Source: a virus (taxonomy: Duplodnaviria; Heunggongvirae; Uroviricota; Caudoviricetes). From it: a DNA stretch of 37,615 bases. A model generated the notes under the pieces. It was given only the letters and a program-made list of their open reading frames with translations, was not told the origin of the DNA and did no database searches. Below, one piece after another: positions 8,907 to 37,615 of the stretch. The DNA lies in IMG/VR virus record IMGVR_UViG_2721755720_000002, positions 1-37,615 of that record; one strand, 5' to 3'. Made by a program: the position numbers and the translations under genes. Each line of letters opens with the position of its first letter. Positions within the stretch are counted from its first letter, which is position 1.

Positions 8907-8914
8907 GACATTTC

Positions 8915-8946
8915 CGCTCTTACACATCCCAGCCCTGAAAAAGGGC
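8915..8946 (+). promoter_or_regulatory. nutR: nutR (boxA CGCTCTTA 8915-8922, boxB 8932-8946)
   Basis: CGCTCTTACACATCCCAGCCCTGAAAAAGGGC, essentially the lambda nutR sequence. Confidence 0.85.
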
Positions 8947-9025
8947 ATCAAATTAAACCACACCTATGGTGTATGCATTTATTTGCATACATTCAATCAA
9001 TTGTTATCTAAGGAAATACTTACAT

Positions 9026-18149: not shown

Positions 18150-18392
18150 ATGGCAGAGATTATTCCCATGACTGAAGAACAGAAATTCCAGTTAGAGATT
18201 TACAAACTGGTCATGAACCAGAACGCAGCCGCAGAAGAAGCATTTCAGTTCATTGGCACTGACGAGCTGAAGCTTGAGTTATTCAAAATTCACTTCCAGT
18301 CAGGCGGCGCTAATTCAGATATCACGACCCGCACTATCGAAGCGGTGCGTAAATCGAAGGAAGCGTTAGACCTGTTCACTACCGGAGCATAA
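18150..18392 (+). CDS. hypothetical protein (80 aa) upstream of the terminase genes
   Basis: ORF track with GGAG upstream. Confidence 0.4.
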   Translation: MAEIIPMTEEQKFQLEIYKLVMNQNAAAEEAFQFIGTDELKLELFKIHFQSGGANSDITTRTIEAVRKSKEALDLFTTGA

Positions 18393-18471
18393 ACATGGCA
18401 ACTCAAGGTTTCGACAACCCATCCAAATTCCGCGATGAATGGGATAAGCAAGCAGAAGGGAAATAATCAAT

Positions 18472-18897
18472 ATGGCGACTGAGAAAAAGAACGTCGGTCG
18501 CCCTTCGGATTACCTGCCGGAGGTGGCTGATGATATCTGTGCGCTGCTTGCCTCCGGGGAAAGTCTGGTTAAGGTTTGCAAGCGCCCCGGCATGCCAGCA
18601 AAGGCTACTGTATTTCGCTGGCTGTCAGAGCATGACGAATTTAGAGACAAGTACGCGAAGGCAACTGAGGCACGAGCTGATTCTATTTTCGAAGAGATAT
18701 TCGAAATTGCTGACAATGCGATTCCAGATGCTGCTGAGGTGGCAAAGGCAAGACTTCGCGTTGATACCCGCAAATGGGCGCTGGCCCGAATGAATCCCCG
18801 TAAGTATGGCGACAAGGTAACTAACGAGCTTGTCGGTAAGGACGGCGGCGCAATCCAGATTGAAACATCACCGATGAGCACTCTATTCGGAAAATGA
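18472..18897 (+). CDS. terminase small subunit (Sf6 gp1-like)
   Basis: 141 aa; GRPSDYLPEVADDICALLASGESLVKVCKRPGMP...RKWALARMNPRKYGDK recalled as Sf6-type small terminase. Confidence 0.8.
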   Translation: MATEKKNVGRPSDYLPEVADDICALLASGESLVKVCKRPGMPAKATVFRWLSEHDEFRDKYAKATEARADSIFEEIFEIADNAIPDAAEVAKARLRVDTRKWALARMNPRKYGDKVTNELVGKDGGAIQIETSPMSTLFGK

Positions 18898-20306: not shown

Positions 20307-20308
20307 AC

Positions 20309-22435
20309 ATGGCAGAGACATTAGAGAAAAAACATGAGCGGATCATGCTCAGGTTTGACCGCGCCTATTCTCCACAGCAGGAAGTGCGCGAAAAGTGCAT
20401 TGAAGCTACGAGGTTTGCTCGTGTCCCCGGAGGTCAATGGGAAGGAGCAACGGCGGCTGGAACTAAGCTTGATGAGCAGTTCGAGAAGTATCCTAAGTTT
20501 GAAATCAATAAGGTAGCAACTGAACTTAACCGCATCATTGCAGAATACCGCAATAACAGAATCACCGTTAAGTTTCGTCCTGGTGACAGAGAGGCAAGCG
20601 AAGAGTTAGCCAATAAATTAAATGGTCTGTTCCGTGCTGACTACGAAGAAACCGATGGCGGTGAGGCTTGCGATAATGCATTTGACGACGCTGCTACTGG
20701 TGGTTTCGGTTGCTTCCGTTTGACGTCGATGCTGGTCAATGAATACGACCCCATGGACGATCGTCAGCGTATTGCTATTGAACCAATATACGACCCGTCG
20801 CGCTCTGTGTGGTTTGACCCTGACGCTAAGAAGTACGACAAATCTGACGCGTTGTGGGCGTTCTGCATGTATTCGTTGTCACCTGAAAAATATGAGGCTG
20901 AATACGGAAAGAAACCTCCTGCTTCTCTGGATGTAACGTCTATGACCAGTTGGGAATATGACTGGTTTGATGCAGATGTTATTTACATAGCGAAGTATTA
21001 CGAAGTTCGTAAAGAGTCTGTTGACGTCATCAGTTATCGACATCCAATCACTGGAGAGATTGCAACATACGACAGTGATCAGGTTGAAGATATTGAAGAT
21101 GAACTGGCAATAGCTGGATTTCAGGAAGTGGCAAGGCGCTCAGTGAAGCGCCGTCGTGTGTATGTATCAGTAGTGGATGGTGATGGTTTCCTTGAGAAAC
21201 CTCGACGTATTCCTGGTGAGCATATCCCCCTCATCCCGGTTTATGGAAAACGCTGGTTCATTGATGACATTGAGCGTGTCGAAGGGCACATTGCAAAAGC
21301 AATGGATCCACAGCGTTTGTACAACCTTCAGGTTTCAATGCTGGCTGATACTGCAGCGCAAGACCCCGGTCAGATCCCTATAGTTGGCGTGGAGCAAATT
21401 CGTGGACTTGAGAAGCACTGGGAGGCTCGCAACAAGAAACGCCCAGCGTTCTTGCCGTTGCGCGAAGTGAGAGATAAATCTGGCAACATTATCGCTGGAG
21501 CTACCCCGACAGGATATACACAGCCTGCGGTTATGAATCAGGCATTGGCTGCATTACTACAGCAAACCAGTGCAGATATTCAGGAGGTTACAGGCGGCAG
21601 TCAGGCCATGCAGCAGATGCCAAGTAATATTGCTCAGGAAACGGTTAACAACTTGATGAACAGAGCAGATATGGCTTCGTTTATCTATCTGGACAATATG
21701 GCGAAAAGTCTTAAACGCGCTGGTGAAGTATGGCTGTCAATGGCGCGTGAAGTGTACGGTTCAGAACGTGAAGTGCGCATCGTTAACGAAGATGGAAGTG
21801 ATGATATCGCTGTCCTGAGCGCACAGGTTGTTGACAGGCAAACAGGGGCTGTTGTTGCGTTAAATGACCTTTCTGTCGGTCGATACGATGTGACGGTTGA
21901 TGTTGGACCAAGCTACACAGCACGACGTGATGCAACGGTTTCTGTACTGACAAATGTCCTTAGCTCTATGCTTCCAACAGACCCAATGCGCCCGGCAATT
22001 CAGGGTATTATTCTGGACAATATCGATGGCGAAGGCCTTGATGACTTCAAAGAGTACAACCGAAACCAACTGCTGATATCTGGTATTGCAAAACCACGCA
22101 ATGAGAAAGAGCAGCAGATTGTTCAACAGGCGCAAATGGCAGCACAAAGCCAGCCAAATCCTGAAATGGTTCTCGCTCAGGCGCAAATGGTAGCAGCGCA
22201 GGCAGAAGCGCAAAAAGCAACTAACGAAACTGCTCAAACTCAAATCAAAGCATTTACTGCCCAGCAGGATGCGATGGAGAGTCAGGCAAACACTGTCTAT
22301 AAACTGGCTCAAGCCAGAAACATCGATGACAAAGCAGTGATGGAGGCAATACGCCTTCTGAAAGATGTCGCCGAGTCACAACAACAGCAATTCCAGTCAC
22401 CACCACAGTCACCGGCAGACTTAATGCCGAGTTAA
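20309..22435 (+). CDS. portal protein (about 708 aa, P22/Sf6-type)
   Basis: ATG at 20309 just after the terminase stop; long Gln/Ala-rich C-terminal helix typical of P22-like portals; the track ORF extends upstream into the terminase gene. Confidence 0.85.
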   Translation: MAETLEKKHERIMLRFDRAYSPQQEVREKCIEATRFARVPGGQWEGATAAGTKLDEQFEKYPKFEINKVATELNRIIAEYRNNRITVKFRPGDREASEELANKLNGLFRADYEETDGGEACDNAFDDAATGGFGCFRLTSMLVNEYDPMDDRQRIAIEPIYDPSRSVWFDPDAKKYDKSDALWAFCMYSLSPEKYEAEYGKKPPASLDVTSMTSWEYDWFDADVIYIAKYYEVRKESVDVISYRHPITGEIATYDSDQVEDIEDELAIAGFQEVARRSVKRRRVYVSVVDGDGFLEKPRRIPGEHIPLIPVYGKRWFIDDIERVEGHIAKAMDPQRLYNLQVSMLADTAAQDPGQIPIVGVEQIRGLEKHWEARNKKRPAFLPLREVRDKSGNIIAGATPTGYTQPAVMNQALAALLQQTSADIQEVTGGSQAMQQMPSNIAQETVNNLMNRADMASFIYLDNMAKSLKRAGEVWLSMAREVYGSEREVRIVNEDGSDDIAVLSAQVVDRQTGAVVALNDLSVGRYDVTVDVGPSYTARRDATVSVLTNVLSSMLPTDPMRPAIQGIILDNIDGEGLDDFKEYNRNQLLISGIAKPRNEKEQQIVQQAQMAAQSQPNPEMVLAQAQMVAAQAEAQKATNETAQTQIKAFTAQQDAMESQANTVYKLAQARNIDDKAVMEAIRLLKDVAESQQQQFQSPPQSPADLMPS

Positions 22436-22448
22436 CCAGGAGTAATCA

Positions 22449-23333
22449 ATGGAAAACGAACTGATCATCGACGGTCAGGTTATTGACCTGTCTGAAACAC
22501 AGGAAAATGCAGAAGAAACCATCATCCAAACAGAGTCACAGCCTGAGAATGAAAGCCAGGATGACAACGGTAAAGAGGTGGAAACTGAGCCTGAAAAAAC
22601 CGAAGAGACACCAGAAGATTACGCCTTGCGTATTGGTGATGAAGAAATTCAGCTTAACGCTGACGATGATGATCACATTGACGGGCAACCTGCACCGCAA
22701 TGGGTGAAAGATCTTCGCAAAGGCTTCAAAGAAACACAGAAAGAAAACCGTGAGTTGCGCCGCCAGCTTGAGGAAGCATTAGCCAAGCCAGCGGAACATC
22801 AGCAACCACAGCCAGACGCTATTCCACCAAAACCGACTCTTGAGTCGTGTGATTATGACGAACAGGCGTTTGAACAGGCATTGACTGATTGGCATGAGAA
22901 AAAAGGCCGTGTCGAACAGCAGCAGCAACAAAAACTACGTCAGCAACAGGAATACCAGCAGCGTTTCCAGCAAAGGGTAGAAGCGCATAAACAACGGGCA
23001 GCCAAACTTCCTGTGAAAGATTATCAGGAAATGGAAGCCATTGTTCTTAGTGAGCTACCACCAATTCAGCAGGAAATCATCATTCACTGTGCAGACGAAG
23101 GCTCTGAACTACTCGCCTATGGCTTAGGTAAGAGCCAGCAATTACGCCAGCGTGTAGCCGCTGAGACAGATCCAATTCGCGCAGCATTCCTCTTGGGGCA
23201 GATTAGCAAACAGGTAAGCCTTGCTCCAAAACCAAAGAAAGCCATCAAGCCAGAGCCGGAAGTACGTGGTGGCGGTGCTGATGCGAAACAAGACGAATTC
23301 AACAAATTATGCCCCGGCGCAAAAATCGAATAA
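22449..23333 (+). CDS. scaffolding protein
   Basis: 294 aa, acidic N-terminus, Gln-rich coiled-coil middle, helix-turn-helix-like C-terminus; between portal and coat. Confidence 0.75.
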   Translation: MENELIIDGQVIDLSETQENAEETIIQTESQPENESQDDNGKEVETEPEKTEETPEDYALRIGDEEIQLNADDDDHIDGQPAPQWVKDLRKGFKETQKENRELRRQLEEALAKPAEHQQPQPDAIPPKPTLESCDYDEQAFEQALTDWHEKKGRVEQQQQQKLRQQQEYQQRFQQRVEAHKQRAAKLPVKDYQEMEAIVLSELPPIQQEIIIHCADEGSELLAYGLGKSQQLRQRVAAETDPIRAAFLLGQISKQVSLAPKPKKAIKPEPEVRGGGADAKQDEFNKLCPGAKIE

Positions 23334-23344
23334 GGAAAAGATAA

Positions 23345-24616
23345 ATGCCTAACAATCTCGACAGTAACGTCAGTCAAATCGTTCTGAAAAAATTCCTTCC
23401 GGGTTTTATGTCAGATTTAGTTCTGGCGAAAACCGTAGACCGTCAGTTGCTGGCAGGTGAAATCAACTCCAGCACTGGCGATAGCGTTAGCTTTAAACGT
23501 CCGCATCAATTCTCATCCCTCCGTACTCCCACTGGTGATATTTCAGGGCAAAATAAAAACAACCTGATCTCAGGTAAAGCTACGGGGCGTGTAGGTAACT
23601 ACATCACTGTTGCTGTTGAATATCAGCAACTGGAGGAAGCGATCAAGCTTAACCAGCTGGAAGAAATTCTCGCGCCGGTTCGCCAGCGAATCGTTACCGA
23701 CCTTGAAACAGAGCTTGCTCACTTCATGATGAATAACGGTGCGTTGTCACTTGGTAGCCCCAATACTCCAATCACCAAATGGTCTGATGTTGCGCAGACG
23801 GCATCTTTCCTGAAAGACCTCGGCGTTAATGAAGGTGAAAACTATGCTGTAATGGATCCATGGTCTGCACAGCGACTTGCTGATGCGCAGACTGGTTTGC
23901 ATGCTTCAGATCAATTGGTTCGTACTGCATGGGAGAACGCACAGATCCCAACCAATTTTGGCGGCATTCGCGCACTGATGTCTAATGGGCTTGCCTCTCG
24001 TACGCAGGGGGCATTTGGCGGAACACTGACAGTCAAAACACAGCCAACTGTTACCTATAACGCAGTTAAAGACTCATACCAGTTCACTGTAACATTGACC
24101 GGAGCGACAGCCAGCGTTACAGGTTTTCTGAAAGCTGGTGATCAGGTCAAATTCACCAATACCTACTGGCTGCAACAGCAGACCAAACAGGCGTTGTATA
24201 ACGGAGCCACACCAATTAGCTTCACTGCAACGGTTACTGCTGATGCTAATTCAGACAGCGGTGGCGATGTGACGGTTACGCTTTCTGGTGTTCCGATTTA
24301 TGACACTACAAACCCGCAGTACAACTCTGTAAGTCGTCAGGTAGAGGCAGGCGATGCCGTATCTGTAGTAGGCACTGCTAGCCAGACAATGAAGCCAAAC
24401 CTGTTCTATAACAAGTTCTTCTGTGGACTTGGCTCTATCCCACTGCCGAAACTGCACAGTATTGATTCTGCTGTTGCAACATATGAAGGTTTCTCCATCC
24501 GCGTACATAAATACGCAGATGGCGATGCCAACGTGCAAAAAATGCGCTTCGACTTACTGCCTGCATATGTGTGCTTTAACCCTCACATGGGCGGTCAGTT
24601 CTTCGGTAATCCGTAA
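23345..24616 (+). CDS. major coat protein (Sf6/P22 type, 423 aa)
   Basis: Size and position; followed by a terminator; similarity recalled. Confidence 0.8.
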   Translation: MPNNLDSNVSQIVLKKFLPGFMSDLVLAKTVDRQLLAGEINSSTGDSVSFKRPHQFSSLRTPTGDISGQNKNNLISGKATGRVGNYITVAVEYQQLEEAIKLNQLEEILAPVRQRIVTDLETELAHFMMNNGALSLGSPNTPITKWSDVAQTASFLKDLGVNEGENYAVMDPWSAQRLADAQTGLHASDQLVRTAWENAQIPTNFGGIRALMSNGLASRTQGAFGGTLTVKTQPTVTYNAVKDSYQFTVTLTGATASVTGFLKAGDQVKFTNTYWLQQQTKQALYNGATPISFTATVTADANSDSGGDVTVTLSGVPIYDTTNPQYNSVSRQVEAGDAVSVVGTASQTMKPNLFYNKFFCGLGSIPLPKLHSIDSAVATYEGFSIRVHKYADGDANVQKMRFDLLPAYVCFNPHMGGQFFGNP

Positions 24617-24620
24617 TAAC

Positions 24621-24647
24621 AAGGGGCTTACGCCCCTTTTATGTTTT
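24621..24647 (+). terminator. intrinsic terminator after the coat gene
   Basis: AGGGGC-TTAC-GCCCCT followed by TTTTATGTTTT. Confidence 0.5.
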
Positions 24648-24658
24648 AAGGAAACAAT

Positions 24659-24844
24659 ATGGATCGGATGAGTGTATTCCTTGCCGCAGATAACGAATCC
24701 GGGCATGTACAGGCCGTTATCGCAGAAAAAGACTTCCAGTTTTTCGAAAGGTTGGGCTTTGTTGCCTCAGTTGATGAATTGAAACCGACCAGTAAGCGAG
24801 GTCGTAAGGCGGCAGACAATGGCAACAGTACTGACAAAGGGTGA
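24659..24844 (+). CDS. small hypothetical protein (61 aa)
   Basis: AAGGA Shine-Dalgarno; overlaps the start of the gp4 homologue. Confidence 0.35.
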   Translation: MDRMSVFLAADNESGHVQAVIAEKDFQFFERLGFVASVDELKPTSKRGRKAADNGNSTDKG

Positions 24845-25301
24845 GATCGTCCTTTTTGCGCTTCGTAAGTTTGCTATTGCTTCTAATGCATCGCTGACTG
24901 ATGTTGAGCCGCAATCAATTGAAGATGGTGTAAATGATCTGGAAGATATGATGTCCGAGTGGATGATTAACCCCGGCGACATTGGTTACGCTTTCGCAAC
25001 TGGAGATGATCAGCCATTACCAGATGATGAGTCAGGTCTTCCAAGAAAATACAAACACGCAGTAGGCTATCAGTTATTGCTGAGAATGCTATCTGATTAC
25101 AGCCTTGAACCAACTCAGCAAGTTCTCAGTAACGCCCAACGCTCATATGATGCCTTGATGACCGACACTCTGGTTGTTCCTTCAATGCGACGACGTGGAG
25201 ATTTTCCTGTAGGGCAGGGTAATAAATATGACGTGTTCACATCTGACCGATATTATCCAGGCGATCTCCCTCTGATTGATGGCGATATCCCAAACGCATA
25301 G
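24819..25301 (+). CDS. tail accessory factor (P22 gp4-like)
   Basis: 160 aa; ...LRKFAIASNASLTDVEPQSIEDGVNDLEDMMSEW parallels P22 gp4 as recalled. Confidence 0.7.
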   Translation: MATVLTKGEIVLFALRKFAIASNASLTDVEPQSIEDGVNDLEDMMSEWMINPGDIGYAFATGDDQPLPDDESGLPRKYKHAVGYQLLLRMLSDYSLEPTQQVLSNAQRSYDALMTDTLVVPSMRRRGDFPVGQGNKYDVFTSDRYYPGDLPLIDGDIPNA

Positions 25302-25309
25302 GTGAATAA

Positions 25310-26728
25310 ATGCCTATTCAGCAACTTCCGCTTATGAAAGGTGTCGGCAAAGACTTTAGAAACGCCGACTATATCGACTATCTGCCAGTGAATATGTTGG
25401 CTACACCCAAAGAAATCCTGAACAGCAGCGGATATCTTCGCTCATTCCCGGGCATTGCCAAACGTTCTGATGTGAACGGCGTATCGCGCGGAGTTGAGTA
25501 CAACATGGCGCAGAGTGCTGTTTATCGCGTGTGTGGGGGCAAGCTGTATAAGGGCGAAAGCGAAGTCGGTGATGTTGCCGGAAGTGGTCGTGTATCAATG
25601 GCACATGGTCGGACATCACAGGCAGTAGGCGTTAATGGTCAACTGGTCGAGTATCGCTATGATGGCACGGTTAAAACCGTCTCAAACTGGCCTACAGACA
25701 GCGGATTCACTCAGTATGAGTTAGGTTCGGTTCGCGACATTACGCGTTTACGTGGGCGTTATGCGTGGTCAAAAGACGGTACTGATTCATGGTTTATCAC
25801 TGACCTTGAAGACGAATCACATCCTGACCGATACAGCGCACAATATCGCGCAGAGTCTCAGCCTGACGGCATCATCGGCATCGGAACATGGCGAGACTTC
25901 ATCGTATGCTTTGGTTCATCGACGATTGAATATTTCTCCCTGACGGGTGCAACCACCGTTGGTGCTGCTTTGTATGTCGCACAGCCATCACTGATGGTGC
26001 AGAAAGGTATTGCCGGAACTTACTGCAAAACGCCGTTTGCTGATTCCTATGCGTTTATCAGCAATCCGGCAACAGGTGCGCCGTCTGTGTATATCATCGG
26101 TTCCGGTCAGGTGTCACCAATCGCCAGCGCGAGCATTGAGAAAATCCTCCGCTCCTACACTGCTGATGAACTGGCTGATGGCGTGATGGAATCGTTGCGG
26201 TTTGATGCGCATGAGTTGCTGATTATCCATCTTCCGCGCCACGTCCTCGTATACGACGCATCTTCAAGCGCCAATGGTCCGCAATGGTGTGTGTTGAAAA
26301 CAGGCCTGTATGACGATGTGTACCGCGCTATCGACTTCATTTACGAAGGCAATCAGATAACGTGCGGCGATAAGCTGGAATCGGTTATCGGCAAATTGCA
26401 GTTCGATATCAGCAGCCAGTACGACAAGCAACAGGAACACCTGTTGTTTACTCCGTTGTTCAAAGCGGATAACGCAAGAGTGTTCGACCTTGAGGTTGAA
26501 TCTTCAACTGGCGTTGCGCAGTACGCTGACCGCCTGTTCCTCTCTGCAACCACTGACGGAATCAATTACGGACGTGAGCAGATGATTGAACAGAATGAAC
26601 CGTTCGTTTACGACAAACGTGTTTTGTGGAAGCGAGTCGGGCGCATCAGGAAAAATGTCGGCTTCAAATTGCGCGTTATCACGAAGTCACCTGTCACTCT
26701 GTCTGGCGCTCAGATAAGGATTGAGTAA
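25310..26728 (+). CDS. tail hub/accessory factor (P22 gp10-like, 472 aa)
   Basis: [35 protein letters not shown]... and same length as P22 gp10. Confidence 0.85.
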
Positions 26729-27576
26729 TGGCGGATTCGAATCTCAATGTGCCGGTAATCATTCAGGCTACACGGCTCGACACATCAGTCCTTCCACGCA
26801 ATATCTTCTCGCAGTCGTATCTGCTTTACGTTATCGCACAGGGTACTGATGTTGGTAACGTGGCGAACAAGGCCAACGAGGCCGGACAGGGCGCTTATGA
26901 TGCACAAGTCAGGAACGATGAGCAGGATGTGATTCTGGTCGATCACGAAATTCGACTAGCATCGGCTGAAGCGAAGATACAGGACCACGAAACAAGGATC
27001 ACTAACGCAGAAGCGGCGATAGTCGGCCTTGATTCACGATTAACGACAGCAGAAAACGATATTGATTATCTGACGGATGAAGTTGTCTCCATTCAAAACA
27101 CGCTTTCAGACCATGAAACGCGCATCGATGCTCTTGAGTATGCCACTACGCGCAAGAAGTCAGAGGTTGTTTACTCTGGCGTATCAGTAACCATCCCGAC
27201 AGCGCCTACCAACCTTGTTAGCCTGCTGAAAACGCTCACGCCGTCATCGGGCACGTTGGCACCATTCTTCGACACCGTTAACAACAAGATGGTTGTGTTC
27301 AACGAGAACAAAACCTTGTTCTTCAAGCTGTCGATTGTCGGGACGTGGCCCAGCGGAACCGCCAACAGATCAATGCAGCTAACCTTTTCCGGCTCTGTTC
27401 CTGACACGTTGGTCAGCAGTCGTAATGCGGCGACAACAACCGATAACATCCTGTTAGCTACGTTCTTCAGCGTGGATAAAGACGGCTTTCTTGCCACAAA
27501 TGGCAGCACGTTAACCATTCAGTCGAATGGTGCGGCGTTTACTGCCACAACCATCAAAATCATTGCGGAGCAGTGA
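26728..27576 (+). CDS. tail needle (gp26-like N-terminus with a C-terminal knob, 282 aa)
   Basis: [43 protein letters not shown] matches the gp26 N-terminus; heptad repeats; extra C-terminal domain as in Sf6-type needles. Confidence 0.8.
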
Positions 27577-28043
27577 TGGAAATAAAACTCATCGATAATC
27601 CGGTGAAGCTTGCAGAATTCCTCAACAACCCGGCAAACACGGGAAATATCGTAGACAGTGGAGATAAATACTACATCAAACCTGATGCGGTATATCTCGG
27701 CATCTACGAAGGATTAGTGCTGGCTGGAGTTCATGAAGTGCGTAACTTCTGGCATAGCGTTGTTGAATGCCATGCGGTGTACGACCCCGGATTCCGTGGT
27801 GAATATGCACTGCAAGGGCATCGATTATTCTGCAAATGGCTTCTCGAAAACTCACCATTCCTTAACAGCATCACCATGGTTCCTGACACCACGAAATACG
27901 GACGGGCAATTATCCGTTTGCTTGGCGCTACCCGTGTTGGTCACCTTGATGATGCGTACATGAGTAACGGAAAACCGGTTGGAATCACCCTCTATCAATT
28001 ACCTCGTTCAAAATATGAGGAGCTATTAAATGTTAGTACTTAG
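27576..28043 (+). CDS. gp14-like head assembly/ejection-associated protein
   Basis: Positional equivalent of P22 gene 14; ATG at 27576 overlaps the needle stop. Confidence 0.45.
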   Translation: MEIKLIDNPVKLAEFLNNPANTGNIVDSGDKYYIKPDAVYLGIYEGLVLAGVHEVRNFWHSVVECHAVYDPGFRGEYALQGHRLFCKWLLENSPFLNSITMVPDTTKYGRAIIRLLGATRVGHLDDAYMSNGKPVGITLYQLPRSKYEELLNVST

Positions 28044-28689
28044 CGAAAGCTTCAAGAATAAATTGCTTCCCATGAATGGGTACATGAAAGGCGGCAGCGA
28101 CTCCGGCTCTAAAGCCCAGGCACGCGCAACTGAAAAGGGTATCGAATTGCAGCGTGAAATGTGGCAGACGAACATGCAAAACCTTGCACCTTTCACGCCA
28201 CTCGCTCAGCAGTACGTATCACAGTTGCAGAATCTTTCCTCTCTTCAGGGTCAAGGTCAGGCTCTTAACCAGTATTACAACTCTCAGCAGTACAAAGACC
28301 TTGCAGGTCAGGCGCGCTATCAGAGTCTGGCAGCAGCAGAGGCAACGGGTGGATTAGGCTCTACAGCAACCGGAAACCAGTTGGCAGCAATCGCGCCTAC
28401 ACTCGGTCAAAACTGGCTGTCAGGTCAGATGAACAACTACAACAATCTGGCAAATATCGGCCTTGGTGCTCTTACAGGTCAGGCAAACGCTGGGCAGAAC
28501 TACGCTAACAACGTCAGCCAATTGTATCAACAGCAGGCGGCAGCATCTGCGGCTAATGCGAATAAACCATCAGGATTTCAGAGCGCCTTGGGGGGAGCGG
28601 CAGCAGGTGCAGCTGCAGGTACTGCAATCATGCCTGGTTGGGGTACAGCAATTGGTGCTGGCGTCGGTCTTCTTGGTTCACTTTTTTAA
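28030..28689 (+). CDS. ejection protein (P22 gp7-like)
   Basis: 219 aa, Gly/Ala/Gln-rich, GAGGAG Shine-Dalgarno; position in the gp7-gp20-gp16 series. Confidence 0.6.
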   Translation: MLVLSESFKNKLLPMNGYMKGGSDSGSKAQARATEKGIELQREMWQTNMQNLAPFTPLAQQYVSQLQNLSSLQGQGQALNQYYNSQQYKDLAGQARYQSLAAAEATGGLGSTATGNQLAAIAPTLGQNWLSGQMNNYNNLANIGLGALTGQANAGQNYANNVSQLYQQQAAASAANANKPSGFQSALGGAAAGAAAGTAIMPGWGTAIGAGVGLLGSLF

Positions 28690-28701
28690 TGGAGGTGTCT
28701 C

Positions 28702-30096
28702 TTGGCTACATGGCAACAGGCTGGTAATTCAGGTGCGCTTCTTGCCGGGTTAGGCGGCATGAACTCCAACGCTCCAAGAGCAAGTGATGCAGACGCCACG
28801 CTTGCATACATTCGACAGAATAACGAGATGGAGCGTTCAGGACGTAATAACGTTGGCTTGCAGGCTTTGCAGGGCATTTCATCTGTCATGGATATGTATA
28901 AGCAGATGGATCAGCAGAAGCGGCAGCAAGAGTTTCAGCAGGCTTATGCTGATGCATATACATCTGGTGACCGCGATGCAATGCGAAAGCTGGCATCACA
29001 GTATCCTGAGCAGTTTGACGCTGTAAGAAACGGCATGAAATTTGTCGATGAAGACCAGCGTTCCACTGTCGGTACACTGGCAGCAAGTGCCAGACTCGCA
29101 GCTTCATCTCCAGAAGCCATGATGTCATGGTTGCAGAACAACTCATCTGAGCTTACTCGTGCCGGAGTAGACCCTCTGGATGTGGCGAAAATGTATCAGC
29201 AAAATCCACAAGGTTTCACAGAGTTTGTTGATCACCTTGGAATGGCTGCACTTGGTCCAGAACAATATTTTCAGGCGCAAGACAGAATCGTTGGGCGTGA
29301 GATTGATCGCGGAAAACTTGCAGAGACAATCCGCAGCAATCAGGCTGGCGAGGCGCTAACAGCACGAGGTCAGAACATCACGATGCGCGGTCAGGATTTA
29401 TCTGCTTCTACTGCGCGACGCGGGCAGGATTTGGCAATGCAGCGAGCGTCAACAAGAGGAACCGCTGGGAATGATGAGCGTACAGTTCAGTTATCAGATG
29501 GCAGAACTGTAACGGTTGGCGGGAAACTTCACGGAGCTGGGGCAAATGCGTTCTACGAAGGCATCGACAACGAGGGGAATATGGTTCGCGTTCCTGCCAG
29601 TTCAATCGCAGCGCCTGCAACATCGTCTGCATCAGCACAAAACTATGCCATGAAGAAGGATATCGACGCGATCGCAAATGCAGACGCTTCTGCTCTCGAT
29701 TTCATGACAGGAATGACCGGAGGCGCAGGTAACCCGGCAATTGGTGCTGATGTTCGCAGCCGATTAACAGGAAAAGAGCAGCGCCAGTTATATAACTCAG
29801 CACAACGTATTCAGGGCAGAATGCAGAATCAGGGTGTGGCGGCAGCAAGGGACATGGGGGCCAGTGGTATTAACACCGTTGCAGAAGCGAAGATGTATTT
29901 TCAGGGGATGCCGCAGGTTGACTATTCAAGCCCGGAGGCTATGCAGCAGTCGATTCGCGAGATTCAGGAATACACCAACAATTACAACCAACAATATAAC
30001 GTTAATGTTGGTAAATCTCAGCGGCAGCAATCTCAACCTGCACAGGTATCACAGCCAGCAGCCAGCAGTAACTTTTCTTCACTATGGGGTGATTAA
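28702..30096 (+). CDS. ejection protein (P22 gp20-like; probable TTG start)
   Basis: 464 aa; GGAGG 6 nt upstream of TTG at 28702; size and position match gp20. Confidence 0.6.
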
Positions 30097-32093
30097 TGGC
30101 TAAAGCATGGAAAGATGTTATCGCCTCTCCACAGTATCAGGCGTTAGCACCAGAACAAAAAGCGCAGGCTCAGGAGCAATACTTCAATGAAGTCGTGGCC
30201 CCGCAAGCCGGAGAAAATGCAGAGCAGGCTAAGCAAGCTTTCTATGCTGCCTATCCATTGCCATCTGTGCAGCCAGTGGATACACAGCAACCAGTAGCAC
30301 AGCAACAACCACAGCAAAGTGGATTTATGTCTGATCTTGGCGAAGCAGTAAAAGAGACTGGTCGCGGACTGGTGCAGGCTGGCGTGAACGTGGCAAACAT
30401 ACCTGCATCAGTTGCAGATGCTGTAACAAGCGCGGCGGCATGGGCTGGCGGTAAACTCGGTATTGGCGATGGTACATATCAGCCAGCGCCACGAGTAACA
30501 ACGCAGGGATTAGAGCAGGACTTTGGCCTTCAGCAAGGCGCGCTGACTCCACAAACGACAGAGGGAAGGGTATTTGCTGAAGCATTGCCTTACCTCACTC
30601 CTGCTGGCGTTGAGAGAGCGGCGGTACAGGCACCAACACTTGCTGGTCGAATTGCTCAGGGGGCAACTCGCCTTCTAGCAGAAAACGCAGTTGGATCACT
30701 TGCTGCAAATAGTGCGAAAGATGATGCGGAAGCACTCGCCACCGATTTAGGCGTTGGTGTACTTGCTGGCGGTGCTATTAACGCTGCCGGACGTGGATTA
30801 GGTGCTGCTTATCGTGGCGTTCGTGGTGCTATCGCGCCAGAAGCGCAGCAGGCTATCAGATTTGCAGAGCGTGAAGGAGTTCCTCTGCACACCACAGACC
30901 TGTTACAGCCTACTTCCCGCGTCGGGAAATTGGCGCAGACGACAGCGGAAAATATCCCCCTAGCTGGCACAAGCGGAATGAGAGCAACGCAACAGGAAGC
31001 GAGAAGCCAGTTGGTGCAGAGATTTGCTGATAAATTCGGTGAGTATGATCCAGCTGTTGTTATTGACAGCCTTAAAGCGAAAACATCAGGAATTCGTCGT
31101 GCTGCAGGGAACCGTCTTGAGCAGGTTCAGAATGCTATGGCTGGAGTAAACATTCAGCCTGCGCGAGCAATTCAGCAGATTGATACAGAATTATCTAACC
31201 TGCAGAAGCTTGGTAAGGTTGCTGATAACGAGACAATTTCAAAACTTCAGTCATATCGTGATGAGCTTGTTCGCAATGCTGGCCCTGATGGTCCGGTAAA
31301 TCTGGATTTGAAGCAATTAAGCGACCTGCGCAGCCAGTTCAGAATGGACGTGAAGGGTGAGCGACCAGTGTTACCAAACCGTTCCGATGCTGCCATTCAG
31401 CGCGTTTACAAGGCAATGACTGACGATATCAATGGTGCCATTGGTCAGAATCTTGGCAACGATACTCTCCGTAAATATCAGCAGGCCAATGCCGTCTACG
31501 CTGACGAAGCGGCGAAACTAAAGAATACCAGGCTGAAGAATGTTCTCATGAAAGGCGACCTGACGCCGGAAGTTGTCAACAACATGCTATTCAGCAAGAA
31601 CAAATCGGAAATTAAGACGCTGTATAACTCAGTTGGTCGTGTTGGCAGGGCGCAAATGCGCAATGGCATCATTGGAAAGGCGATGGAGAAATCTGGCGGA
31701 TCCCCTGACCAGTTCCTTCGGCAGCTTAACATCCTGCAAAACCAGACTGGCATCACATTTAAGGGGCAGGACGCTGCTTATCTGAAAGGATTAAAAAACT
31801 ATCTGCAATCCACGCAGCAGGCTGCAAAAGCGGCAGTAACAACACCCACAGGGCAGCAAACTATCCCGTTCATTATTGGGTATGGGACGGCAATGAACCC
31901 GGCGACAACTGGCGCAGCAGTAAGCTACGGACTTCTTACTCGCGCCTATGAGAGCGAGCTATTCAGAAATGCAATGCTCCGAATGGCAAACTCCCCACGC
32001 GGATCAACAGCGTTCGAGAAAGCCATGCAGCAGGCACAAAAGGCCATTAACGCCCTGACTCAGGGGGCTAAGTCTGATGCGCTGTCAGAATAG
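30096..32093 (+). CDS. ejection protein (P22 gp16-like)
   Basis: 665 aa; last gene of the ejection series, before the immI-like region. Confidence 0.6.
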   Translation: MAKAWKDVIASPQYQALAPEQKAQAQEQYFNEVVAPQAGENAEQAKQAFYAAYPLPSVQPVDTQQPVAQQQPQQSGFMSDLGEAVKETGRGLVQAGVNVANIPASVADAVTSAAAWAGGKLGIGDGTYQPAPRVTTQGLEQDFGLQQGALTPQTTEGRVFAEALPYLTPAGVERAAVQAPTLAGRIAQGATRLLAENAVGSLAANSAKDDAEALATDLGVGVLAGGAINAAGRGLGAAYRGVRGAIAPEAQQAIRFAEREGVPLHTTDLLQPTSRVGKLAQTTAENIPLAGTSGMRATQQEARSQLVQRFADKFGEYDPAVVIDSLKAKTSGIRRAAGNRLEQVQNAMAGVNIQPARAIQQIDTELSNLQKLGKVADNETISKLQSYRDELVRNAGPDGPVNLDLKQLSDLRSQFRMDVKGERPVLPNRSDAAIQRVYKAMTDDINGAIGQNLGNDTLRKYQQANAVYADEAAKLKNTRLKNVLMKGDLTPEVVNNMLFSKNKSEIKTLYNSVGRVGRAQMRNGIIGKAMEKSGGSPDQFLRQLNILQNQTGITFKGQDAAYLKGLKNYLQSTQQAAKAAVTTPTGQQTIPFIIGYGTAMNPATTGAAVSYGLLTRAYESELFRNAMLRMANSPRGSTAFEKAMQQAQKAINALTQGAKSDALSE

Positions 32094-32182
32094 CTTCGCA
32101 AATACCAGGAACGTGCAAAAACCAAATATGTAGAACGCAATATTCAGCATATCTCTGTGCATAAATCCTCCGTAACGGATGG

Positions 32183-32443
32183 TTATCTGCTGTCTTTTTT
32201 ATATAGCTTCTTGAGCGTATCAAAGACAATTTTCTTAACCATATCAGATTGTTGTTCTGCCATACGCTCTGCATCGTCAATGTAAACTGATGCAGAGCTT
32301 TGTTTATCCAATGATTCCTCAATCGCTGCAATTATCTCTGAGTTCAGCGATCTGTTATTCATCTTCGCACGCTGTTTAATCTTCGCGTGGAGTTCATGCG
32401 GAAGTCTCAAGTGAAACTGCGCCTCGTCGTATTTGCTGTACAT
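32183..32443 (-). CDS. mnt: Mnt-like ribbon-helix-helix repressor (86 aa)
   Basis: ATG at 32443; FHLRLPHELHAKIKQRAKMNNRSLNSEIIAAIEESL plus ...DMVKKIVFDTLKKLYKK parallel P22 Mnt as recalled. Confidence 0.7.
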   Translation of the reverse strand: MYSKYDEAQFHLRLPHELHAKIKQRAKMNNRSLNSEIIAAIEESLDKQSSASVYIDDAERMAEQQSDMVKKIVFDTLKKLYKKDSR

Positions 32444-32499
32444 CCTTGATGCCTCACCAGTTGGGTGGAATGGCATCGTAACCTACTGGATAAATACTC

Positions 32500-32540
32500 A
32501 ATAGTACCATTTCGGTATGCAATCACATCATGGTTGCATC
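32500..32540. promoter_or_regulatory. candidate operator and divergent promoter region between mnt and the tailspike
   Basis: Imperfect inverted repeats TACC-ATTTC-GGTA and ATGCAA...TTGCAT within the 120-bp intergenic region. Confidence 0.3.
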
Positions 32541-32564
32541 ATATCATTCGTCTGGAGCAATGAA

Positions 32565-34976
32565 ATGTCAGATATCACCGCAAATGTTGTGGTAAGCATG
32601 CCTTCGCAACTCTTCACTATGGCGCGTTCTTTTAAAGCCGTAGCCAATGGCAAAATTTATATCGGTAAAATTGATACTGACCCTGTAAATCCTGAAAACC
32701 AGATTCAGGTTTATGTGGAGAACGAAGACGGTTCTCACGTTCCTGTTTCTCAACCAATCATCATTAACGCTGCTGGTTACCCGGTATATAACGGACAGAT
32801 TGCCAAATTCGTAACTATGCAAGGCCATTCTATGGCTGTATATGATGCGTACGGTTCTCAGCAATTCAATTACCCAAACGTTCTTAAATACGACCCTGAC
32901 CAGTTGCGTCAGGAGCTTGGCGGTTACGATGGCGCAAAGGTCATCGGTGAGTGTCCAGACATCGAAACGCTAAGGACTATTGAGCCACAGGAAAACAGTC
33001 AGCGCATTATCGTCCGCCATCACACCCTTAATTCTGGTTACGGTGGTGGTCAGTTCCGTTCCCGCCTTGATGGTTCATCGTACACAGATAACAATGGCAC
33101 GGTCATCAAGACTACGGGTGGCGCAGTGTGGCTGCGTATCAATGCCGATATTATAAACCCTCTGATGTTCGGCGCGATCCCAGACGGTGTTACTGATTGT
33201 TCAAGTGCGTTCACTAATGCACTTTCGGCTGGTAGCATTGTTGTTCCTGACGGTGAATTCAAAATATCAAACGTGCAGGTTCCCACTAAAACAAGCATTC
33301 GTGGTAACGGGTACAAATCTAAAATCGTTGTTCCTACAGGCCAGGCATCGTTCCTAGTTGGGAATTCCTCTGCGGCTACAACAATAGATTATTTCGATGG
33401 TTGTAATATTTCTGATTTGCATATTTGGTCTGATTCAGTAGCGGCTGGCACCATTGGGATAATCACGAACGGAATTAGCTCTTCAAGATTTGAAAACATT
33501 GTTTATACCAAAACAAACATTGTTATTCGTCAGGACCATGCGGAAGGCTGTACTTTCAGAAATATCAGTAACTCTGATTTGGAAAATGGTGATACTGACC
33601 CTGTGTTTGTGATTTTTTCTCAGATAAATAAACGTTCAAATGATAATTCATATTTAAACTTTGTAGCGAGAAGTAGTGATACAGAGATTTATTTAGGAAT
33701 GGTAGGTGGTGGTGACGTAACTGTGGCACAGCACGATGGCATCACTATCGAAGACTGCATTCTGTTTCCGTGTCAGAAGGATAACATTTATGTTGCAAAC
33801 GGAAGGATGGGTAGGATCTCAAATAATGAGTTGTTTGTAGCTGGAAGAAATGGAATTCGCATAGACGCAGTTGTAACAAACATGTCAATTACAGGGAATA
33901 ATATTCCTTGGTCTGGAAGATTTACTGCAGGCGGGGCTGATGCAATACTGGTGCAAACAGTGGCTGGTAGCGCTTCTTCCGCAGTTGGACAGGTGGATAT
34001 TAGCAATAACATCATCAGTATGCCTTCTGGCTGCGGAATGAGGGTTGCTGGGATTGGTCAAGTAACTATTACTAATAACACTATTGTCTCTCCAAATAAC
34101 ATTAAAACAACAGTGACTGGACCATTCACTGCTAAGCAATATGACGGAATAAGGATTAACGGAGCTTGCGGATATATATTTGTATCTGATAACCATGTCA
34201 CCACAGGAAGACACGGTCAGGGCGGTGATGATTTCTCAACGAACTGGAGATATGATGTTTTTGTTGAGTCTACCGTCATAAATGGAGTTGTTAAGCATCC
34301 TGGAATAAATGTTTTAAATCTTTCGCCTTACATTGATGTACAACTCCCTATAACTAGATATATTCAGGGTCGACATCAGACTCTATACAAGGAGGTTAAC
34401 AGTCCGTACGCAACAACTAACTGGAGGGTTGCCTCAGGAACGGGAACCATATCAGCAGTATCTGCAACTAATCCATACTCTGGGGAGTTAACAAATACCG
34501 TATTGCAGTTTGTAAACACATCCGGAACTTCAATTTTCTCAAGAGGAGAAAATACCACAACTGCGGGTGACCCAATTGGCGCTGTTTTTAAGGTTAGGTG
34601 CACATCTCCGACATCCGCTTATGTTACGTTCAGTATTGTAGTTGGCGGTTCGGTCTTTGTTCAGAGAAGCATAATGGTAGGTGCAGGGTGGGGTGAGATA
34701 GACATGCGCAGACTGGGAGCGCCTGCAGGGGTTGTTGCTTTTCAGGTTTCAATATCAGATATATGCACCATACAAATAGCCGAAGTTAGGGTGACCAAGA
34801 CCACAGAAGCGCCCCAATTATCAGGTACATATTATGGAACATCAATCCCTACATCCGGCTACTATAAGGTTGGAGATATAGTTAAAAACTCAGTCCCAAC
34901 ACCTGGATCTCCGAGAGGCTGGGTGTGCACAGCGTCAGGGACTCCAGGATCATGGGTATCAGAAGGAAATCTGTGA
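32565..34976 (+). CDS. tailspike: P22-type head-binding N-domain fused to a divergent beta-helix receptor-binding domain (803 aa)
   Basis: GGAG Shine-Dalgarno then ATG at 32565; [56 protein letters not shown] matches the P22 gp9 N-terminus; remainder has beta-helix-like repeats and is AT-richer. Confidence 0.85.
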
Positions 34977-34980: not shown

Positions 34981-34996
34981 GCGCCACGGATGGCGC
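34981..34996. terminator. candidate bidirectional terminator hairpin between the convergent tailspike and AlgJ-like genes
   Basis: GCGCCA-CGGA-TGGCGC, with a T-rich tract on the plus side. Confidence 0.4.
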
Positions 34997-35001: not shown

Positions 35002-36123
35002 TTATTTTGGAAGATTAGTAAACCAAGGGATTGTCATTGCCTGGCGTTCAACCGCAGTGACTATTACCAGATCAGGTTTATAGGTACCAATTATGCGCGT
35101 CATAATTTCAGGTGTCGCCATAACAGCCTGATAATGCTGCTGGAATATGTTGGAGAAGGTAGCGTTCATGAACGGTTCCATTCCATCACCAAATGAATCA
35201 CGTAACCACAAGACCTTCATTGAGTTAAGTGCAGTTTCATTCCTGGTTTCCTGAGGAACATTACGATGTATGGTAGAGTTATCAATCGGTAACACTTTTT
35301 TGAATGCCCCATACCAGTCATAAACCTTGACAGTCTTTGCACCAGGTACTTTTGCAGTGTACTCAACATCTATTAGAGAGTCCTGAAGGCGAAGGAATCT
35401 ACTAAGGTCACCACCATTTCGTGATGATGCTGAAATATCAACGTCTTTATCGGTGAGCCATTTTATATTAGGTACTTGTTGAGAAATTCTATGCGAAATC
35501 TCCTTGTAACCGGCCCATGCACCTCTTTTGTTCCAGTGGGTATCGGTTTTATAATATAGAGGGCCATTATTCTTCAAGTTATCAAAAGACGCACCCATAT
35601 TGATGAAGGTGTGATCGCCTTTTGCTGAAGACAAGAGGTATTGAGTGTTTCTGCTACCGCCATTTTCGATAAGCCATTTTGGCGAAAACTCGGGGTAAAC
35701 TGTATGTTTATCTGGAGCAAAGCTTACAAAGTATCCCTTGCCGCCATAACTTTTGACGTAACTATCCCAGGCAATCCTTGCTTTAGCCATTTTGTCTATC
35801 TGCGGCCTGATATCCTTTGTAAGATTCCTCTTTTCTGAAAGAGTGTTTGAATATTTATCACCAAGGAACAGCCATCCATTTTTACCAACTATGGTCTCTT
35901 CAGGATAAAGAGATATCCCAACTTTATATAGCACACCAGACAGAGGCGGGATTGCAGAGTCAAGGTTATACAGACCATCAACGTTAAACCAATCAGTAAC
36001 ATCAGTTTTAGAGAAGTCAATAATTTTCGCACCATTAATAGCACCATCTTTAACATTTACCAACGGCGCTATCATTAAAAGAGCGAGTGAACTCACAGCA
36101 AAACTACAGATGTATTTTTTCAC
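35002..36123 (-). CDS. AlgJ/AlgX-like SGNH-type periplasmic O-acetyltransferase partner with N-terminal signal anchor (373 aa from GTG; ATG at 36162 possible)
   Basis: GAGGAG then 6 nt then GTG at 36123; hydrophobic N-terminus ICSFAVSSLALLMIAPLV; YYKTDTHWNKRG motif resembling the AlgJ/AlgX catalytic D-x-H-W; LRDSFG downstream; overlaps the MBOAT stop. Confidence 0.6.
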   Translation of the reverse strand: MKKYICSFAVSSLALLMIAPLVNVKDGAINGAKIIDFSKTDVTDWFNVDGLYNLDSAIPPLSGVLYKVGISLYPEETIVGKNGWLFLGDKYSNTLSEKRNLTKDIRPQIDKMAKARIAWDSYVKSYGGKGYFVSFAPDKHTVYPEFSPKWLIENGGSRNTQYLLSSAKGDHTFINMGASFDNLKNNGPLYYKTDTHWNKRGAWAGYKEISHRISQQVPNIKWLTDKDVDISASSRNGGDLSRFLRLQDSLIDVEYTAKVPGAKTVKVYDWYGAFKKVLPIDNSTIHRNVPQETRNETALNSMKVLWLRDSFGDGMEPFMNATFSNIFQQHYQAVMATPEIMTRIIGTYKPDLVIVTAVERQAMTIPWFTNLPK

Positions 36124-36133
36124 GACTCGCTCC

Positions 36134-37615
36134 TCAGAAATTAAAATACAGGAAAACTGCATTTGTGGATTTTATGGTTGCATACACGGCAGTTACAAAA
36201 AGAACAACCATACATATTGTTTTAATACCATAAGACCCCTTGGCGATGGTCATTTCGTATGAGTTTTTTAATGGGGTGATTATGAAACCAATTAATATCA
36301 ACGAATAGCAAAGGAAGTTCTCAACAATTCCAACGGGAAGGAATGTTGATAATTTATCTGTAAATACGCCACCCCATGCCAGCATGTCAGTTGGAGCATT
36401 CTGAATGGATAGTGCACTTACTGAACCAATGTCAATCATTCCTCGCAGGATACGCATGGCATCGCCTACAGAATGAGCACGGAAGAAAACCCACGCAACG
36501 TTAACAAACATAAATGTAATAAACCATGCCAGAACCGAAGGTAGCGAGAACCCTCTACGCTTCCACCATCGGTGGATGACAAGAGCGCCACCATGCAGCA
36601 CGCCCCATATGATAAACATCCAACTTGCACCGTGCCACAGCCCACCCAGAACGAACGTAGCAAACAGATTAAAATACACCCTGGCGCTGGAACATCGGTT
36701 CCCACCCAAAGGGATGTATATATAATCGCGAAGATAGCGACCAAGGGTTATGTGCCATCTGCGCCAAAAGTCCTGTATATCAAAAGATTTGTATGGTGAA
36801 TTGAAGTTTAGAGGGAGCCATATGTTAAAGAGAAGCGCGGCCCCGATCGCCATGTCACAGTAACCACTAAAATCAAAATAAAGTTGAAATGTGTAAGAAA
36901 GACTGGCGGCCCATGAGCTAAAGAAATCATGCTGCGCCCCAGGTGCAAACCCTGCATCTGCGAACACTGCAAAGTTATCCGCGATAACAACCTTCTTGAA
37001 TAACCCAACACTGAAGATAAACAACCCCATAAAAATATTTCTGTATCTTATAGCGCAATTCCACTTAGACTGGAACTGGGTCATCATCTCTTTATGGTGA
37101 AGTATTGGCCCTGCTATAAGGTGCGGGAAGAATGTTACGAACAATGCATAGTTGACGAAGTCATACTCTTTAGCGCTCCCTCTGTAACTATCAACAAGAA
37201 AAGCCGTTTGGGTAAAAGTATAAAAACTAATACCGAGTGGAAGTATTATGTTCCTAAAAGTAAGCTCATAACCGCTAAGAGCATTGAAATTCTCAATGAA
37301 GAAGTTTGTGTATTTATAATAACCAAGCAAAGACAAATTCACGATAATAGCTATTGTTAAAATTGCCTTACGCGAAAACGGTATTCTGACCCCTTTGACA
37401 TGCGGAGAGACAGCCCCTCCGGCAATGAAGTTGAAAAGGATGGAACCTAACAATAATGGGAGATAGCTCACATCCCAATAGCCATAGAAGAAGAGACTGC
37501 AAGCCACAAGCCAAACCTTTCCAGCGTATACCATTCTGATTTTATTTAAGAAAAAGTACACAAAGAAGGATATAGGCAAAAACAGAAAAATGAATACAGG
37601 AGTACTGAAAAGCAT
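36134..37615 (-). CDS. MBOAT-family membrane-bound O-acyltransferase (AlgI/DltB/PatA-like, 493 aa); start codon is the last three bases of the window
   Basis: Multi-pass membrane protein; N-terminus MLFSTPVFIFLFLPISFFVYFFL; FWRRWHITLGRYLRDYIYIPLGG and LWHGASW motifs carrying the conserved MBOAT His; AT-rich coding region. Confidence 0.85.
   Translation of the reverse strand: MLFSTPVFIFLFLPISFFVYFFLNKIRMVYAGKVWLVACSLFFYGYWDVSYLPLLLGSILFNFIAGGAVSPHVKGVRIPFSRKAILTIAIIVNLSLLGYYKYTNFFIENFNALSGYELTFRNIILPLGISFYTFTQTAFLVDSYRGSAKEYDFVNYALFVTFFPHLIAGPILHHKEMMTQFQSKWNCAIRYRNIFMGLFIFSVGLFKKVVIADNFAVFADAGFAPGAQHDFFSSWAASLSYTFQLYFDFSGYCDMAIGAALLFNIWLPLNFNSPYKSFDIQDFWRRWHITLGRYLRDYIYIPLGGNRCSSARVYFNLFATFVLGGLWHGASWMFIIWGVLHGGALVIHRWWKRRGFSLPSVLAWFITFMFVNVAWVFFRAHSVGDAMRILRGMIDIGSVSALSIQNAPTDMLAWGGVFTDKLSTFLPVGIVENFLCYSLILIGFIITPLKNSYEMTIAKGSYGIKTICMVVLFVTAVYATIKSTNAVFLYFNF

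Follow-up and report, generated by a model that had tools for sequence, protein, structure and literature searches.

Phage-encoded O-antigen acetylation in the Enterobacteriaceae is attributed to single acyltransferase-3 (AT3) enzymes such as Oac and OafA/B, and glucosylation to Gtr. In phage Sf6, the annotated gene order is tailspike (+), terminator, oac (-), promoter, and int. A two-gene arrangement has been described, though thinly, in the Pseudomonas phage JBD44, where gp41, annotated as an 'MBOAT family protein' (493 amino acids), and gp40, a 'hypothetical protein' (372 amino acids), lie between the endolysin gene and gp39 and converge on gp39. These genes are described as O-antigen-acetylating and as serotype-converting to O10 (Taylor et al., 2024 preprint, 10.1101/2024.03.05.583538), which differs from O19 by an acetyl group on Rha O-2 (PMC11200240). 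Deleting genes 40-41 lowered free phage in lysogen cultures about 10^4-fold and left the induced burst unaffected (10.1101/2024.03.05.583538).

Here we describe a related gene pair at the end of a 37,615-nt stretch of DNA (the window; IMG/VR record IMGVR_UViG_2721755720_000002, positions 1 to 37,615), an Sf6-like phage found as a prophage in Escherichia coli. The pair—an MBOAT-family membrane acyltransferase and an AlgX-like partner—occupies positions 35002-37615 on the minus strand, all coordinates being those of the full window unless a locus or genome is named. We consider it probable that this cassette O-acetylates the host O-antigen and so masks the phage's own receptor. The initial annotation of this DNA had presented an MBOAT two-component system as apparently new cargo at such a locus; JBD44, whose gp41/gp40 cassette is the same and likewise adjoins a tail spike, overturns the claim of novelty in that form. 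Our literature searches found no description of such a cassette in Enterobacteriaceae or in P22/Sf6-like phages, and no paper containing both 'MBOAT' and 'lysogenic conversion'. The present cassette is the first of its kind known to us on an Sf6/P22-like backbone and in E. coli, replacing the AT3 acetylase in its slot.

The two proteins and their place in the prophage

The larger protein matched the MBOAT profile with a wide margin in a Pfam search (121.4 bits against a gathering score of 27, E=6.5e-35, residues 135-374), in keeping with its earlier recognition from the FWRRWH and LWHGASW motifs, which lie at residues 283-288 and 326-332. Its best solved-structure match by sequence was DltB (6bug, E=2.7e-27). 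His288 of the first motif and His328 of the second align with the conserved DltB histidine motifs fwnrwH and gfwHg, and both are invariant among six cassette MBOATs. With a score of 153 bits against TIGR04091 (DltB), far under the equivalog cut-off of 375, the protein is DltB-like but not DltB itself. A hydropathy profile, which is a crude method, gave at least six segments with a Kyte-Doolittle mean of at least 1.6 over 19 residues, as expected of a polytopic protein.

The partner had been proposed from the letters alone to be a signal-anchored protein with a TDTHW motif of the AlgJ/AlgX type, and profile, structure, and residue conservation all bear this out. It scored 55.1 bits against PF16822 (ALGX; gathering score 26.5, E=1.2e-14), with TDTHW at residues 193-197. 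The closest PDB sequences were Bacillus cereus PatB1 (5v8e, E=4.9e-6) and Pseudomonas putida AlgJ (4o8v, E=0.011), and the TDTHW and RDSFG motifs of the partner align with ktdHHWn and lkDSFa of PatB1. Across 69 homologues of 30-90% identity, D194, H196, W197, D309, S310, and G312 are invariant; Asp194, His196, and Ser310 are the predicted Asp-x-His...Ser catalytic triad of the family, permuted relative to classic SGNH enzymes. An AlphaFold2 model built on the alignment of these homologues reached a mean predicted local distance difference test score (pLDDT) of 91.4 and a predicted template-modelling score (pTM) of 0.87. When it was searched against the PDB with Foldseek, all ten matches at E<=1e-3 were PatB1 (best, E=4.9e-15), AlgJ (6.3e-13), DHHW (4nzk), or AlgX (4knc), the next match having E=0.095.

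Hydropathy places a single hydrophobic segment in the partner, at residues 4-22, and the model has an N-terminal helix at residues 2-26. Because Pro20 and Asn23 in this segment are invariant in the 69 homologues, we take the segment to be kept in the mature protein, as a putative uncleaved signal anchor like that of AlgJ. Nothing follows the catalytic domain in the 373-residue protein: it has neither the C-terminal carbohydrate-binding module of AlgX nor the extension seen in homologues of about 510 residues from Nitrosospira and Janthinobacterium.

Both genes were present as open reading frames on the minus strand and converge on the tailspike gene as initially described, with a GC-rich hairpin between the stop codons (Table 1). 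The hairpin folds at -10.3 to -11.3 kcal/mol (z = -2.1 on the plus strand and -2.9 on the minus strand) and falls within a block common to this prophage and one of Enterobacter hormaechei. The two genes had been called overlapping, which is true only of the longest reading frame of the partner (386 amino acids, ATG at 36162); the PGAP start in the same genome record, GTG at 36123, gives 373 amino acids and leaves a gap of 10 nt. Since this gap holds a GAGGAG ribosome-binding site, and a spacing of 9-11 nt recurs in all five homologous cassettes compared with it, we take the genes to form one operon. The cassette is AT-richer than the phage backbone, as had been noted by eye: its GC content is 0.412, against 0.481 for bases 1-32000 and 0.435 for the receptor-binding part of the tailspike.

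Window positions 18000-32500, the morphogenesis region, are 94.7% identical to Sf6 over 85% of the query. This Sf6-like backbone, together with the same order, orientation, and terminator, places the cassette in the slot of Sf6 oac, the location at which, as the initial annotation noted, Sf6-like phages carry a single-gene acetylase. Profile, structure, and context evidence together support its proposal of a self-contained acetylation cassette, with an MBOAT translocase and a periplasmic transferase.

Table 1. Features at the cassette end of the window
Feature	Position	Strand	Basis
Tailspike, PGAP start MSDITANVV	32565..34976	+	PF09008 E=1.7e-65 and PF13229 E=4.8e-6
Hairpin GCGCCA-CGGA-TGGCGC, probable bidirectional terminator	34981..34996		Terminator scan and folding
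AlgX-family (AlgJ/PatB1-like) SGNH-like putative O-acetyltransferase, 373 amino acids, GTG start	35002..36123	-	PF16822
Intercistronic spacer, 10 nt, ribosome-binding site GAGGAG	36124..36133	-	Junctions compared across six cassettes
MBOAT-family integral membrane acyltransferase, 493 amino acids, presumed acetyl donor/translocase	36134..37615	-	PF03062

The tailspike, which joins a P22-type head-binding N-terminal domain to a beta-helix receptor-binding domain, presumably recognises the glycan that would be modified by the cassette. Its longest reading frame starts at 32517, and the P22-type N-terminus coincides with the PGAP start at 32565, so the 16 extra codons (32517-32564) are probably untranslated. 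A search of 50,697 phage records gave no close relative of the receptor-binding domain, and, as the domain lacks a characterised relative, receptor specificity cannot be read from homology. Upstream of the tailspike and divergent from it lies a gene for a 97-residue Arc/Mnt-type ribbon-helix-helix repressor (PF11423, PF03869; 32183-32476, minus strand; 86 residues in the PGAP form), a placement resembling the P22 immI region.

The cassette is 100% identical in E. coli M18, a mouse isolate (NZ_CP010219.1), and 99.8% identical in E. coli CEC15, a rodent isolate; these are the only carriers among 5,426 complete E. coli genomes, the other 5,424 being without it. In M18 the prophage sits between sbcB and dacD, in the order integrase, xis-like gene, intervening phage genes, ejection proteins, mnt/arc-like gene, tailspike, AlgX-like gene, MBOAT gene, and a umuD-like S24 peptidase gene (humD), sbcB lying on the integrase side. 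M18 encodes O180-family wzx and wzy, dTDP-rhamnose genes, and a UDP-ManNAc3NAcA-type pathway, and CEC15 has been typed as O180:H14 (PMC10680302). The O180 wzy occurs in seven of the 5,426 genomes; two of these seven hold the tailspike receptor-binding domain together with the cassette, and no other of the E. coli genomes has either, a co-occurrence with a chance of about 1e-6 under independence.

The prophages of the two strains are mosaic. M18 and CEC15 are 99.2% identical over a stretch that begins within the last ejection-protein gene and continues past the tailspike and the cassette into the chromosome, and across the upstream ejection-protein genes (window ~27300-30300) they are only 81% identical. 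The junction adjoins the tailspike/cassette module, and the last ejection protein of CEC15 carries a lytic transglycosylase domain. Distances from the M18 prophage are about 15 kb to wzzB and 19-34 kb to the O180 O-antigen cluster (NZ_CP010219.1 855,400-930,000), short enough for cassette and cluster to be co-transferred by recombination or transduction.

One boundary of the window falls slightly within the integrase end of the prophage and the other coincides with the MBOAT ATG, so that the upstream control region and the umuD-like gene are not part of it. In the M18 prophage, a near-consensus LexA box, TACTGTATTAATATACAGTA, followed by a divergent gene for a 129-residue UmuD-like protein (HumD-type, S24 peptidase) lies between the MBOAT gene and attR, ~100-525 bp past window base 37615 (box at locus L001 10714-10733, gene at L001 10751-11140). 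Box and gene recur beside the E. hormaechei cassette (L003), and the box also at locus L004; in a P2-like prophage (L022) and at Enterobacter loci L008/L009 the cassette is likewise flanked by UmuDC-like genes. We do not claim SOS control of the cassette: the box overlaps the divergent umuD-like promoter, at a distance of some 100 bp from the MBOAT ATG. A P22 gtr-like Dam/OxyR phase-variation signature was also sought and is absent, the region containing a single GATC.

Related cassettes and their divergence

Related cassettes were found in several settings, and in all of them an MBOAT gene of ~493 codons, a spacer of ~10 nt, and a partner gene of ~370 codons recur. In an E. hormaechei prophage the pair has as neighbours a Tail_spike_N tailspike and the umuD-like gene also seen in E. 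coli, with a partner 68% identical to that of the window; a P2-like prophage carries it beside umuDC-like genes (partner 55%), and a Cronobacter prophage remnant retains it as well (38%). At the Enterobacter yedD-fliE locus it occurs with or without a remaining prophage and beside AT3-SGNH acyltransferase genes (partner 50%). In bacteriophage MN856003.1 and an IMG/VR contig it stands beside tailspikes with a GDSL esterase domain (42%). Lone islets occur in Citrobacter braakii (MBOAT 91% identical), Erwinia, Pseudescherichia, and Nitrosospira (partner 43%, 43%, and 36%, respectively). The C. braakii copy adjoins thrS and a transposase fragment (L028 7001-9614), that of Pseudescherichia lies between lepA and rseC (L032 5510-8122), and that of Erwinia adjoins a hexapeptide transferase gene (L031 5653-8113); the two-gene unit can persist, or move, without a phage.

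Two of these settings place other glycan-active proteins next to the pair. In Enterobacter yedD-fliE loci L007-L010, a fused AT3-SGNH acyltransferase (OafA/OafB-like) is encoded directly upstream (L007 4267-6144 beside 6508-9122), such that two different extracytoplasmic acetylation systems adjoin, in some genomes without other phage genes. The tailspikes next to cassettes of 42-43% identity combine Tail_spike_N with Lipase_GDSL (L005 4789-6948, L006 3770-5929, L012 4692-6854, L004 9357-11096), and these phages probably deacetylate their receptor glycan beside a cassette predicted to acetylate a glycan.

The two genes diverge at very different rates. Among six cassettes (15 pairs), the MBOATs are 68-99% identical and the partners 34-68%, save for one near-identical pair, a pattern that fits a generic acetyl donor combined with an acceptor-specific transferase. 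In the sole pair with 96% identical partners the tailspikes align over their full length (82%); in the remaining pairs they align in the N-terminal anchor only, or not at all. That the partner varies with the tailspike receptor-binding domain is suggestive only, there being a single positive pair. Homologous cassettes in Enterobacter adjoin tailspikes at prophage ends, and the block common to the E. coli and E. hormaechei prophages (3.18 kb, 71% nucleotide identity) runs from the stop codon of the tailspike gene to that of the umuD-like gene. From these borders we take the mobile unit here to comprise the hairpin, the AlgX-like gene, the MBOAT gene, the control region, and the umuD-like gene. 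Cassette GC was low in every host examined (0.37-0.44).

Outside these loci, the cassette is rare in phage collections and poorly labelled. Megablast of the cassette against the 50,697 phage records gave no match and tblastn matched only JBD44-like Pseudomonas temperate phages, meaning that no sequenced P22-like phage carries it; scans of IMG/VR returned eight loci only. Neither PHROGs nor PADLOC has a family for the MBOAT or the partner, PGAP labels them 'alginate O-acetyltransferase AlgX-related', and annotation resources do not recognise the cassette as a conversion module. We also considered recent transfer between E. coli and JBD44, whose MBOATs are 70% identical, and rejected it. The MBOAT family is wide (more than 8,000 clusters at E<1e-50) and retains 62-64% identity even in Nitrosospira, Methylococcaceae, and Deltaproteobacteria, so 70% is roughly what the family shows in any case and does not point to recent transfer.

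Acceptor and function

We infer a lysogenic-conversion operon of an Sf6-like prophage, expressed in its E. coli O180 lysogen. The MBOAT would receive acetyl from a donor in the cytoplasm, presumably acetyl-CoA, and make it available on the periplasmic side of the inner membrane, where the anchored partner would accept it on Ser310 of the predicted triad and transfer it to a hydroxyl of the O-antigen while this is linked to undecaprenyl-pyrophosphate in the periplasm. An acetylated O180 chain would no longer be bound or cleaved by the prophage's own tailspike, and the outcome would be protection from superinfection and release of progeny that are not lost by re-adsorption to sister lysogens. 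In Sf6 this role belongs to the single-gene AT3 acetylase Oac; among cassettes of the present type, O-antigen acetylation with protection of progeny from re-adsorption is reported for JBD44 only. The initial annotation had left three targets open: O-antigen, another exopolysaccharide, and peptidoglycan. The divergence of the transferase, its co-variation with the tailspike, and the O180 association favour the O-antigen over polymers that are invariant between hosts, and the comparative data argue against peptidoglycan.

Several observations weigh against O-antigen acetylation and receptor masking. Given that the flanks in M18 and CEC15 are 99.2% identical, a single acquisition may underlie the O180 association. 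The cassette need not be linked to a tailspike, as the lone islets of Citrobacter, Erwinia, Pseudescherichia, and Nitrosospira lie away from any tailspike and the cassette of the P2-like prophage has none as a neighbour. Expression in the lysogen is assumed: on the MBOAT strand, a promoter scan of the 136-bp upstream region gave no match to the sigma-70 consensus. As for the precedent, the JBD44 chemistry is cited there from another reference, and the methods speak of 'proposed serotype converting genes' (10.1101/2024.03.05.583538); the partner is, moreover, only 37% identical to gp40, and acceptor specificity is not transferable at that distance.

The alternative that retains most credit, which we nonetheless regard as unlikely, is that the acetylated target is another polysaccharide—enterobacterial common antigen (ECA), colanic acid, O-antigen capsule, poly-N-acetylglucosamine (PNAG), or cellulose—and that the modification benefits the host through biofilm formation or immune evasion, or blocks other phages. 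AlgI/AlgJ/AlgX act on alginate, WssH/WssI on cellulose, and PatB1 on a secondary cell-wall polysaccharide; lone copies stand far from tailspikes, and the family of the 493-residue MBOAT is very large in environmental Proteobacteria. However, ECA, PNAG, cellulose, and colanic acid are conserved across the Enterobacteriaceae and predict a conserved transferase, whereas the E. coli and Enterobacter partners are only 42-68% identical and their MBOATs 78-88%. The phage receptor glycan is indicated instead by the genomic slot, by the way in which partner and tailspike vary together, and by the JBD44 report.

A further possibility is that the cassette is inert, a hitch-hiking moron that is not expressed or whose acceptor is absent from E. 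coli O180. The lack of a clear promoter, a low-GC composition that is foreign in every host examined, and its rarity in E. coli (two of 5,426 genomes) would all be compatible with this. Yet both reading frames are intact and full-length with all family-invariant residues kept, the operon architecture, ribosome-binding site, and terminator are preserved, and the M18 and CEC15 copies are 99.8-100% identical though the prophages differ upstream (81%), which together make inert cargo quite improbable.

Finally, the best PDB sequence match of the partner is named PatB1, and the B. cereus enzyme of that name (5v8d/5v8e work) reportedly acetylates a secondary cell-wall polysaccharide and not peptidoglycan, which counts against a peptidoglycan acceptor. 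PatA/PatB-like peptidoglycan O-acetylation, with a changed response to lysozyme, endolysin, or lytic transglycosylase, has in its favour the two-gene MBOAT plus SGNH-like layout (PMC9558356) and the name of that best match. It is the least credible of the readings and can be largely set aside: every Foldseek match at E<=1e-3 belonged to the PatB1/AlgJ/DHHW/AlgX group and none to another SGNH family, E. coli, Enterobacter, and Pseudomonas do not differ in their peptidoglycan glycan strands and yet the transferases are 34-68% identical against 68-88% for the MBOATs, and the co-variation with the tailspike receptor-binding domain would stay unexplained.

Returning to O-antigen acetylation, the related cassettes suggest a broader picture, which we offer tentatively and hold to be slightly more easily wrong than right: a portable receptor-masking module in which a slow-evolving MBOAT is combined with an AlgJ-like transferase that diversifies fast, is specific for a glycan, and matches the tailspike of the carrier phage, and which moves between P22/Sf6-, lambda-, and P2-like phages of Enterobacteriaceae and Pseudomonas. 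Phage-driven O-antigen acetylation alters serotype, vaccine epitopes, and phage susceptibility. If the pair does acetylate O-antigen, it would be the first MBOAT-dependent case in the Enterobacteriaceae and would give rise to O-serogroup subtypes, here within O180, in a way that has gone unrecognised, and genome-based serotyping and prophage annotation would be missing a class of conversion genes. The surface chemistry of CEC15 is of practical interest in its own right, this strain being under development as a probiotic. A conserved donor with an exchangeable transferase would also offer a convenient natural system for studying how an MBOAT hands over acetyl to its periplasmic partner.

Comparison with known systems

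The Pseudomonas alginate machinery (AlgI/AlgJ/AlgF/AlgX) shares with the cassette an AlgI-like MBOAT and an AlgJ-like, SGNH-like protein with the DxH...S signature, for which a type II anchor is putative in the cassette. It differs in having AlgF and a second AlgX-type protein with a carbohydrate-binding module, neither of which is seen in the cassette; the loci inspected held no AlgF, alginate synthesis genes, or further acetylation subunit, and the neighbours of the window cassette are the tailspike, the umuD-like gene, and dacD. B. cereus PatA1/PatB1, like the cassette, has two genes, for an MBOAT and an AlgX-family transferase, and no other dedicated subunit. In both sequence and structure PatB1 matches the partner best (template-modelling score 0.56-0.70), and it has the same Asp-x-His...Ser arrangement, but the two are only ~16% identical in the structural alignment, and PatB1 belongs to a Gram-positive host, has a wall polysaccharide as its acceptor, and is not phage-borne.

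The phage-borne conversion systems have the same presumed role, as the prophage would modify an O-antigen receptor in the manner of Sf6 Oac and P22 gtrABC. Sf6 Oac occupies the same slot with the same orientation and terminator arrangement on a 95%-identical backbone, and differs in chemistry: Oac is a single AT3 (PF01757) membrane protein, whereas the cassette appears to split the job between an MBOAT and a separate AlgX-family enzyme, and neither cassette protein matched PF01757 in the Pfam search. Peptidoglycan acetylation is the sole process for which a 2022 review lists AT3 and MBOAT systems as sharing a function (PMC9558356).

The JBD44 pair shares with that of the window the order of MBOAT then partner, a spacing of about 10 nt (11 nt in JBD44), products of similar length (493 and 372 amino acids in JBD44), convergence on a tail spike, a position near int/att, and an N-terminal helix motif, IAPxVN, in the partner. 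JBD44 gp41 is 70% identical to the window MBOAT without a gap, and gp40 aligns with the partner over its full length. Its cassette is likewise low in GC, at 0.43 against 0.55-0.61 in the phage flanks. The two differ in host (P. aeruginosa with an O10/O19 O-antigen, not E. coli O180), in phage type (a lambda-like siphovirus with a tail spike as opposed to an Sf6-like podovirus, the tail spikes being unrelated), and in their other neighbour (endolysin gene versus umuD-like gene), and the partners are too diverged for the same acceptor sugar to be assumed. To this precedent the present comparison adds the pattern of a conserved donor with a variable transferase, the spread of the pair over three types of temperate phage, and its travel with SOS-type umuD(C) genes.

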